Below, in pieces: positions 1,275-3,059 of a stretch of DNA of 3,059 bases. A program made the translations under genes and the position numbers. The stretch comes from a phage. Position 1 is the first letter of the stretch. The number at the start of each line of letters is the position of its first letter. Location: the sequence record PZ195122.1. One strand, written 5' to 3'. The notes beneath the pieces were generated by a model. The model searched no databases, was not told where the DNA came from, and worked only from the letters and a program-made list of their open reading frames with translations.

Positions 1275-1667
1275 ATGGCAACTTTACGCAGTTTCGTACT
1301 CGTCGATAATGGCGGTACGGGGAATGTTACTGTCGTTCCTGTTAGCAATGCCAACGGCGTCGCTGAGTGGCTTTCTAATAACTCACGTAGTCAAGCTTAT
1401 CGCGTGACTGCAAGTTATCGTGCGTCAGGCGCGGATAAGCGCAAGTACACCATCAAACTCGAGGTACCGAAAATCGTTACCCAAGTTGTAAATGGTGTCG
1501 AGCTGCCTATCTCCGCGTGGAAGGCTTATGCCTCCATCGACCTGACCATCCCGATCTTTGCTTCTACCGACGATGTGACTGTTATTTCCAAGTCACTTGC
1601 CGGCTTGTTCAAAGTCGGGAACCCTGTTGCCGAAGCTATCTCTTCACAGAGTGGCTTCTACGCTTAA
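1275..1667 (+). CDS. cp: Coat (capsid) protein, 130 aa including the initiator Met
   Basis: 130-aa ORF beginning MATLRSFVLVDNGGTGNVTVVP...NGVAEWLSNNSRSQAY...IPIFA...SGFYA, the signature levivirus coat fold sequence (compare MS2 FVLVDNGGTGDVTV / NGVAEWISSNSRSQAY / TIPIFA). From memory it is closest to the group II phage GA coat. Stop TAA at 1665-1667. Confidence 0.96.
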   Translation: MATLRSFVLVDNGGTGNVTVVPVSNANGVAEWLSNNSRSQAYRVTASYRASGADKRKYTIKLEVPKIVTQVVNGVELPISAWKAYASIDLTIPIFASTDDVTVISKSLAGLFKVGNPVAEAISSQSGFYA

Positions 1668-1858
1668 TGGGTCTGAAAGCAAAACATAAGGAAAACCTAT
1701 GTTCCGATTCACAGAGATCGAAAAGACTCTATGTATGGATCGCACTCGCGATTGTGCTATCCGATTTCACGTCTATCTTCAGTCATTGGATTTGGGGTCT
1801 TCTGATCCTCATTCTCCAGACTTTGATGGACTTGCCTACCTTCGTGATGAATGTCTAA
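1667..1858 (+). CDS. lys: Lysis protein (L-type single-gene lysis), 63 aa
   Basis: ATG at 1667-1669 overlaps the coat stop (TAATG). Translation MGLKAKHKENLCSDSQRSKRLYVWIALAIVLSDFTSIFSHWIWGLLILILQTLMDLPTFVMNV has a basic N-terminal part and a hydrophobic C-terminal transmembrane stretch with an L-S dipeptide, as in MS2 L (LYVLIFLAIFLSKFT). Lies in a different frame from the replicase, overlapping its 5' end. Stop TAA at 1856-1858. Confidence 0.85.
   Translation: MGLKAKHKENLCSDSQRSKRLYVWIALAIVLSDFTSIFSHWIWGLLILILQTLMDLPTFVMNV
1684..1702 (+). promoter_or_regulatory. Translational operator hairpin (coat-protein binding site) enclosing the replicase start codon
   Basis: ACAUA-A-GG-AAAA-CC-UAUGU: a 5-bp lower stem (1684-1688 with 1698-1702), unpaired A1689, a 2-bp upper stem (G1690-C1697, G1691-C1696) and a 4-nt loop AAAA (1692-1695). 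The replicase AUG (1699-1701) sits in the 3' arm. Same architecture as the MS2 operator ACAUGAGGAUUACCCAUGU. Confidence 0.78.
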
Positions 1859-3059
1859 CTAAACATCCCTCACTAGGAGACAGTAATTCGGAGGCACGCC
1901 GTAAGGAATTGGCATATGCCAAACTTATGGATAGTGATCAAAGATGCAAAATCCAAAACAGCAACGGATACGACTACTCTCATATCGAGAGCAGCGTACT
2001 GAACGGCATACTCAAGACCGCTCAGGCCCTAATTGCGAACTTGCTCAAGGGTTTTGAATCTCACTTCCTGAACGATTGTTCGTTCTCCAACGGAGCCTCA
2101 CAAGGGTTCAAGTTGCGGGATGCAGCGCCGTTTAAGAAGATCGCTGGGCAAGCAACCGTTACAGCTCCTGCCTATGACATTGCCGTAGCCGCCGTTAAAA
2201 CGTGCGCGCCGTGGTATGTTTATATGCAGGAAACGTATGGCGATGAAACCAAATGGTTCCGTCGGGTATACGGCAACGGTTTGTTTTCTGTTCCGAAGAA
2301 CAATAAAATAGATCGGGCTGCCTGTAAGGAGCCTGATATGAATATGTACCTTCAGAAAGGGGCGGGATCTTTTATAAGAAAACGCCTTCGCTCTGTCGGT
2401 ATAGATCTTAATGATCAAACGTGTAATCAAGAATTGGCCCGACTCGGCAGCATTGATGGTTCTCTCGCTACTATTGATCTCAGTAGCGCGAGTGATTCCA
2501 TCTCTGATCGCCTCGTCTGGGACCTACTTCCTCCACACGTTTATTCATACCTCGCCCGCATTCGGTCATCATTCACTATGATTGATGGCCGCCTGCATAA
2601 GTGGGGTCTATTTTCTACCATGGGAAACGGCTTCACATTCGAACTTGAGTCCATGATTTTCTGGGCTCTGAGTAAGAGTGTTATGCTGTCCATGGATGTT
2701 ACTGGCTCATTAGGCATCTACGGTGACGATATAATCGTCCCTGTACAGTGTGCCCCAACTCTCCTTAAGGTACTATCCGCTGTGAACTTTCTTCCTAATG
2801 AAAGGAAGACATTTACGACGGGTTACTTTCGTGAAAGTTGCGGTGCTCACTATTTTAAAGGTGCCGACATGAAACCTTTTTACTGCAAGCGGCCAATGGA
2901 AACCCTTCCCGATGTCATGTTGCTTTGCAACAGGATAAGGGGTTGGCAGACCGTTGGTGGAATGTCAGATCCGCGGCTCTATCCAATTTGGAAAGAGTTC
3001 GCTGATATGATTCCGCCGAAGTTTAAGGGTGGATGCAACCTAGATCGTGATNNNNNNCT
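1699..3059 (+). CDS. rep: RNA-dependent RNA polymerase (replicase beta subunit), 3'-truncated by the window end
   Basis: Open frame from the ATG at 1699 for 451 codons up to the N run, with no stop. Blocks shared with MS2 replicase include NGASQGFKLRDAAPFKK, VPKNNKIDRAACKEPDMNMYLQKG, IDLSSASDSISDRLVW, FSTMGNGFTFELESMIFW, YGDDII (YGDD at 2719-2730) and RESCGAHY. Not in the ORF track, probably because it has no in-window stop. Confidence 0.96.
   Translation, partial: MFRFTEIEKTLCMDRTRDCAIRFHVYLQSLDLGSSDPHSPDFDGLAYLRDECLTKHPSLGDSNSEARRKELAYAKLMDSDQRCKIQNSNGYDYSHIESSVLNGILKTAQALIANLLKGFESHFLNDCSFSNGASQGFKLRDAAPFKKIAGQATVTAPAYDIAVAAVKTCAPWYVYMQETYGDETKWFRRVYGNGLFSVPKNNKIDRAACKEPDMNMYLQKGAGSFIRKRLRSVGIDLNDQTCNQELARLGSIDGSLATIDLSSASDSISDRLVWDLLPPHVYSYLARIRSSFTMIDGRLHKWGLFSTMGNGFTFELESMIFWALSKSVMLSMDVTGSLGIYGDDIIVPVQCAPTLLKVLSAVNFLPNERKTFTTGYFRESCGAHYFKGADMKPFYCKRPMETLPDVMLLCNRIRGWQTVGGMSDPRLYPIWKEFADMIPPKFKGGCNLDRDXX
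3052..3057. other. Run of 6 ambiguous bases (N), a sequencing or assembly gap inside the replicase gene
   Basis: Literal nnnnnn at 3052-3057, followed by 2 nt before the window ends. Confidence 0.9.

Follow-up and report, generated by a model that had tools for sequence, protein, structure and literature searches.

Does the short hairpin that encloses the start codon of the replicase gene in this phage genome serve as the translational operator at which the coat protein shuts off replicase synthesis, and to which class of coat-operator pairs would it then belong? Pairs of the MS2-like kind are the textbook model of translational repression and are widely used for RNA tethering and imaging. 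Our analysis of the window (the entire 3059-nt stretch of DNA under study) leads us to assign the hairpin, with a probability of about 95%, as the operator that controls translation of the replicase in a single-stranded RNA coliphage of the GA type (group II, Emesvirus japonicum). By its sequence, the element is in fact an already described and known one, the operator of phage GA, present base for base in a slightly diverged strain.

The window contains three complete open reading frames and a fourth one, for the replicase, which is cut off at the window end by a run of six N (3052-3057) followed by CT (Table 1). Full-length megablast matches among phage records were obtained for BZ13 DL10 (92.9% identity), BZ13 DL20 (92.7%) and phage GA (92.6%) and, at a weaker level, for BZ13 T72 (84.6%) and KU1 (84.4%); all of them are group II F-specific ssRNA coliphages of the species Emesvirus japonicum. 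For the MS2-group phages the match was confined to one stretch of the replicase gene. Judged by these matches, the window is a Fiersviridae genome, that of a group II GA-like levivirus (Emesvirus japonicum: GA/BZ13/KU1). A replicase CDS homologous to the frame in the window is annotated in the GA, BZ13 and KU1 records, and an in-frame TAA (1687-1689) precedes the replicase ATG, so that AUG 1699 is the first possible start of this frame. The start of the lysis frame overlaps the coat stop codon (UAAUG), and the entire operator lies within the lysis frame, at codons 6-12 (KHKENLC). Its 19 nucleotides are therefore constrained by lysis coding, by the Shine-Dalgarno sequence and AUG of the replicase and by the hairpin itself. 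A separate, stable hairpin is found at the end of the coat gene directly before the lysis start (1629-1663; -13.7 kcal/mol, z = -2.9, 2/200 shuffles), and corresponds to the element that carries the label 'pot. stem loop structure; pot. function in lysis gene control' in the GA record.

Table 1. Coordinates of the genes in the window and of the elements at the replicase start.
Feature	Coordinates	Strand	Basis
Maturation protein ORF, 390 aa	86-1258		
Coat protein gene, 130-aa ORF	1275-1667	+	translation, matches to GA coat
Lysis protein ORF, 63 aa	1667-1858	+	translation; homologous CDS annotated in GA, BZ13
Replicase (RdRp beta subunit) ORF	1699-3051	+	451 open codons; GIYGDDIIV motif with YGDD
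Replicase translational operator hairpin	1684-1702	+	sequence, fold, conservation, covariation, GA GenBank annotation
Hairpin extended by one pair, A1683-U1703	1683-1703	+	p = 0.74 in whole-window partition function; in MFE
Shine-Dalgarno-like UAAGGA for replicase	1687-1692	+	read from sequence; 6 nt before AUG

Folded in isolation, the operator 19-mer ACAUAAGGAAAACCUAUGU (in DNA letters, ACATAAGGAAAACCTATGT) has the minimum free energy (MFE) structure (((((.((....))))))), which is also the centroid, at -3.3 kcal/mol. This equals the structure proposed in the first-pass annotation, with ACAUA and UAUGU as the outer arms, an unpaired A, GG paired with CC and an AAAA loop. The lower stem consists of five pairs (1684-1688 with 1698-1702) and the upper stem of two G-C pairs (G1690 and G1691 with C1696 and C1697), and the loop, A1692-A1695, occupies positions -7 to -4 relative to the replicase AUG. 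The structural hallmarks of an MS2-type operator are thus present: a loop of four nucleotides that has A at -4 and a purine at -7, one unpaired purine in the stem two pairs below the loop (A1689 in the MFE structure), and the replicase AUG in the 3' arm (1698-1702), between the coat and replicase genes. That AUG, correctly placed in the stem from the outset, opens the long RdRp frame. The Shine-Dalgarno-like UAAGGA, whose match to the anti-Shine-Dalgarno sequence is established knowledge, runs from the 5' arm across the bulge to the first base of the loop, so that both initiation signals are held in the one hairpin.

The hairpin is retained in the MFE structure with flanks of 0, 10, 25, 50, 100, 200 and 400 nt as well as in the whole 3050-nt fold, and its pair probabilities are 0.94-0.99 in every folding context, except for the pair of U1698. 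A more stable alternative, named beforehand as the outcome that would speak against the operator, was sought with flanks up to the whole window; given the persistence of the hairpin and the high pair probabilities in all of these contexts, none displaces it. The exception is of some interest. In the partition function U1698 pairs with either A1688 (p = 0.51) or A1689 (p = 0.48), and the unpaired adenine is therefore located at -10 or -11 with near-equal probability. This ambiguity of the bulge register arises from the A-U pair that the window has under the bulge, where MS2 has G-C.

The stability of the 19-mer is modest (z = -2.3, with 7 of 200 shuffles folding equally well), which lends itself to a different view, namely that the fold is incidental, that the sequence is conserved for the replicase Shine-Dalgarno and AUG together with the overlapping lysis frame, and that the coat protein has no specific role here. 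The weakness of the hairpin, the presence of both the Shine-Dalgarno and the AUG in it, and its location wholly inside the lysis frame are in line with this view. So is the outcome of a motif scan (5 bp, an unpaired purine, 2 bp and an RNNA tetraloop) on dinucleotide-shuffled windows, which contain 0.2 such sites on average; since 50 of 300 shuffled windows (~17%) have at least one somewhere, the motif is neither rare nor significant at the scale of the genome. In the window itself the scan returned exactly one plus-strand site, the operator, and no second strict-consensus coat-binding site was found on that strand (minus-strand matches were set aside, the plus strand being the one that is packaged). 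The only copy of the motif falls exactly on the replicase AUG, a coincidence that is very unlikely by chance (expectation at a fixed position, ~0.2/3030).

To what extent is the hairpin conserved beyond its coding background? The 19-mer is identical in five database genomes (GA, three BZ13 genomes and KU1) and in five environmental group II contigs (L010-L012, L014 and L015), which were recovered via their coat protein and not by using the hairpin as a query. Identity within group II is uninformative, however, because the lysis and replicase frames overlap here and, over the 300 nt that follow the hairpin on its 3' side and comprise this overlap, the window and KU1 are likewise 94% identical, as would be expected of an incidental fold. 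On the other hand, the more distant metagenomic contig OGVK01001857 retains the hairpin at 19 of 19 positions while its coat gene is 68.8% identical to that of the window at the nucleotide level and its flanks 59-67% (59-69% for flanks and coat gene together). This comparison argues decisively, at the level of sequence, for conservation of the hairpin beyond its background. Variation around the operator is seen in the KU1/T72 lineage (KU1 itself, L004, at ~1718-1735, L005 and contigs L010-L012, L014 and L015), which carries extra sequence, GGCGUAGUUCUUCAGCAUUGGG..., after the coat stop and ahead of the lysis start, and in which AUUUAA or AAUUAA replaces AAA just 5' of an unchanged operator.

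Across the genus, the operators diverge in sequence while their pairing is maintained. Besides the window, they include those of MS2 (ACAUGAGGAUUACCCAUGU), of fr and the uncultured OGVH01000845 (both with an ...AAUA... loop), of the uncultured AVE017, Emesvirus piscicola (ACGUGAGGAAAACCCAUGU), of OGVH01003227 (ACAUGAGGAAAACCCAUGU) and of Ga0255252_1001044 (ACAUGAGUAUAAACCAUGC). In an alignment of eight distinct Emesvirus operators, 98.2% of the cells are paired, compared with only 11-55% when the 3' partners are slid as a control. In two pairs both partners have been replaced, G-C having become A-U below the bulge and U-A in the upper stem. No variation is seen in nine Emesvirus operators at the unpaired A, at A-7 and A-4 or in the AUG. 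Such compensatory changes, together with the invariance of the three adenines, run counter to an incidental fold, although the sample is small (eight distinct rows), so that the covariation is supporting evidence and not proof. One departure from the common geometry was observed in OGVH01000181.1 (L018), an Emesvirus-like phage whose coat protein is 70% identical to that of the window and has Ser87. Its 20-nt operator (~1902-1921), ACAUGAGUAAAAUACCAUGU, folds into a 3-nt AAA loop on an upper stem of 3 bp, or alternatively into a 5-nt loop on one of 2 bp, that is, with an altered loop geometry on an unchanged lower stem and AUG.

Among characterized phages, the closest counterpart is GA itself. 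The GA record X03869 lists at 1733-1753 (about 1682-1702 of the window) a 'pot. stem loop structure; pot. binding site coat protein', and the GA replicase CDS starts at 1749, inside this annotated stem loop. The window hairpin is identical to X03869 1734-1752 at 19 of 19 positions, including the A at -5; the 5' flank AAAGCAAA and the spacing to the coat stop, the lysis start and the replicase AUG are shared as well, and the hairpin shows no difference in genomes that are ~7% diverged overall. The MS2/R17 operator shares 15 of the 19 bases and the same architecture (5 bp, an unpaired A, two G-C pairs, a 4-nt loop with A-4 and A-7, the AUG in the 3' arm and the Shine-Dalgarno in the 5' arm). It differs in its AUUA loop (AAUA in fr, as opposed to AAAA in the window), in the pair under the bulge, and in having, like fr, GAGGA at the place of UAAGGA. 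The best Rfam match in the whole window is likewise the MS2 operator family, RF02359, at 1682-1702 (18.1 bits, E = 0.44). Its gathering score of 40 is not reached by the window hairpin, because only model positions 16-36 of 36, those of the hairpin, can be aligned while the MS2-specific 5' flank (the first 15) is unmatched; the low score reflects a narrowly built model and not the structure of the hairpin. Rfam matches to the archaeal snoRNAs sR28 and sR43 (E = 1.3-3.9) were set aside as chance. Qbeta, from another genus, also has a coat-binding hairpin with an unpaired A in its stem at the replicase start. The loop of that hairpin is of 3 nt and its stem is longer; the 4-nt loop and 2-bp upper stem of the window hairpin led us to reject a Qbeta-type assignment.

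The window's coat protein shares 96.9% identity with that of GA and 60.5% with that of MS2, and matches the structures 1GAV and 1UNA in PDB with E of about 1e-78. These two, both free of RNA, were the only entries found for the GA capsid or coat dimer. The residues that contact RNA in MS2 are kept (V29, T45, S47, R49, K57, T59, K61, E63 and Y85). At three further positions the protein is of the GA type, with R43, K55 and S87 where MS2 has K43, N55 and N87. It is the combination of a GA-identical hairpin with a cognate coat protein having Ser at MS2 position 87, K55 and R43 that places the pair in the GA-type specificity class. The first-pass annotation had tentatively suggested this class from the AAAA loop, as compared with AUUA in MS2, and both the loop and the coat residues fit it. 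Compared with the coat protein of strain GA, the window has T59, I79, S97 and V118 in place of A59, G79, A97 and I118. Among the group II sequences examined, T59 is common to the window, the BZ13 genomes and KU1, as it is to MS2, and contig L014 has I59. I79 and S97 are absent from all other group II sequences examined.

Coat residue 87 and the loop base at -5 are linked in the genus. Asn87 is found exclusively together with U at -5 (MS2 and fr), and every AAAA loop found is paired with Ser87, not only in the GA group but also in the uncultured AVE017, OGVK01001857 and OGVH01003227, whose AAAA loops resemble that of the window. Ser87 together with an AAUA loop (U-5) is seen in one lineage, OGVH01000845. 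The coats of these four uncultured Emesvirus are 61-73% identical to that of the window, and the operators of AVE017 and OGVH01003227, unlike that of the window, have an MS2-like G-C pair under the bulge. That the loop position tracks the coat residue is difficult to reconcile with a coat protein that plays no specific role. The pattern agrees with what Lim, Spingola and Peabody are said to have found in 1994, namely that discrimination at -5 is determined by residue 87. A literature search for Asn87 together with phage GA gave no match. Of the uncultured phages, OGVH01003227.1 (L019; operator 1259-1277, coat gene 811-1200) encodes an MS2/fr-like coat protein (K43, N55, Y85; 61% identical to that of the window) that nevertheless has Ser87, and it combines an AAAA-loop operator with the MS2-type G-C pair under the bulge. 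In its specificity, this phage may stand between the MS2 and GA types as a natural intermediate.

The GA coat reportedly differs from that of R17/MS2 in being indifferent to which of two positions holds the unpaired purine, and is said to lack a strong preference for a pyrimidine at -5; both points are attributed to Gott et al. The ambiguous register and the AAAA loop of the window hairpin fit this description. According to PMC3561173, the hairpin at the replicase start binds the coat protein, is the translational operator and may initiate encapsidation. Citing Gott et al. 1991 for GA, the same paper describes binding of the coat as critically dependent on the loop A at -4 and on an unpaired purine in the stem, in MS2 and PRR1 as well as in GA. 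The coat-protein binding site of GA has been the subject of an NMR study (Smith and Nikonowicz 1998). A study of repression in vivo used what it names the native GA site with the GA coat and described crosstalk between the MS2 and GA coats. Neither the exact 19-mer nor a 15-mer, sought in full texts as RNA or DNA, was found in any paper.

The binding work cited for GA and the use of the native GA site with the GA coat in vivo also speak against an incidental fold. Together with the contig OGVK01001857, the compensatory changes and the link to residue 87, they make that view exceedingly improbable. Binding of a coat dimer to the window hairpin is predicted, and is supported by the cited GA literature and by the conserved RNA-binding face of the coat protein. 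Thus, the initial proposal of a coat-binding replicase operator, made by analogy with MS2, has gained support from the GA annotation, the identity of the 19-mer, the coat contact residues and the cited GA literature, and the comparison with GA and MS2 operators that was proposed along with it favors the GA type.

A further possibility is that the replicase is controlled mainly by long-range pairing of the Min Jou type, coupled to translation of the coat gene, and that the hairpin with the coat protein acts only as an auxiliary brake late on, or mainly as a signal for packaging. The window has a candidate duplex of this kind, GAAAGC (1675-1680, just 5' of the hairpin) with GCUUUC (1369-1374, coat codons 32-34), at a place homologous to UGAAUGG:CCAUUCA of MS2, and the whole-window partition function gives p of about 0.43 for the pairing of 1676-1678 with 1372-1374. 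The same coat codons offer different complementary sequences in KU1, T72, OGVK01001857 and OGVH01003227, where only 0-7 of 200 shuffles are as good. In the window, on the other hand, the duplex is no better than 50 of 200 shuffles and competes with a predicted pairing of 1662-1681 with 2697-2715, so that a Min Jou-type pairing is plausible here but statistically unremarkable. Moreover, such a pairing would complement repression at the operator rather than exclude or replace it; in MS2 the two coexist. As the main control of the replicase, with the operator in a subordinate role, long-range pairing is therefore very improbable.

With the operator assignment preferred, the switch would be expected to work as follows. 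Early in infection ribosomes would open the hairpin, which they can do because in its free form it is only marginally stable, and would start at AUG 1699 by means of the internal UAAGGA. As coat protein accumulates, a dimer would bind the folded hairpin and stabilize it, presumably recognizing A-4 and A-7 of the loop and the unpaired adenine of the stem (A-10 or A-11). The bound helix would then clamp the Shine-Dalgarno sequence and the AUG and block access of the 30S subunit, so that translation of the replicase would be off late in infection. The operator-coat complex is probably one of several high-affinity sites by which the genomic RNA is singled out for encapsidation, and not an obligatory nucleation point. 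We infer both the timing of repression and the role in packaging by analogy; the latter is documented for MS2 and Qbeta, for which a review summarizes the roles of the operator in repression and as a packaging signal.

Overall, the locus is an example of a cis-regulatory RNA-protein switch that can be recognized from raw sequence alone. As the known operator of GA, it adds no new biology by itself, and the GA coat and its AAAA-loop site are already known as an alternative to the MS2 pair, with which they partly cross-react. A more speculative suggestion, which we consider possible though rather unlikely, is that coat residue 87 and the loop base at -5 have co-evolved in a natural series, and that the sliding of the unpaired A in GA-type phages has possibly been selected to match a register-tolerant coat protein. 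If this were true, the series formed by -5 and residue 87, the shifted loop of OGVH01000181.1 and the sliding adenine would represent natural intermediate stages as RNA-protein specificity diverged.
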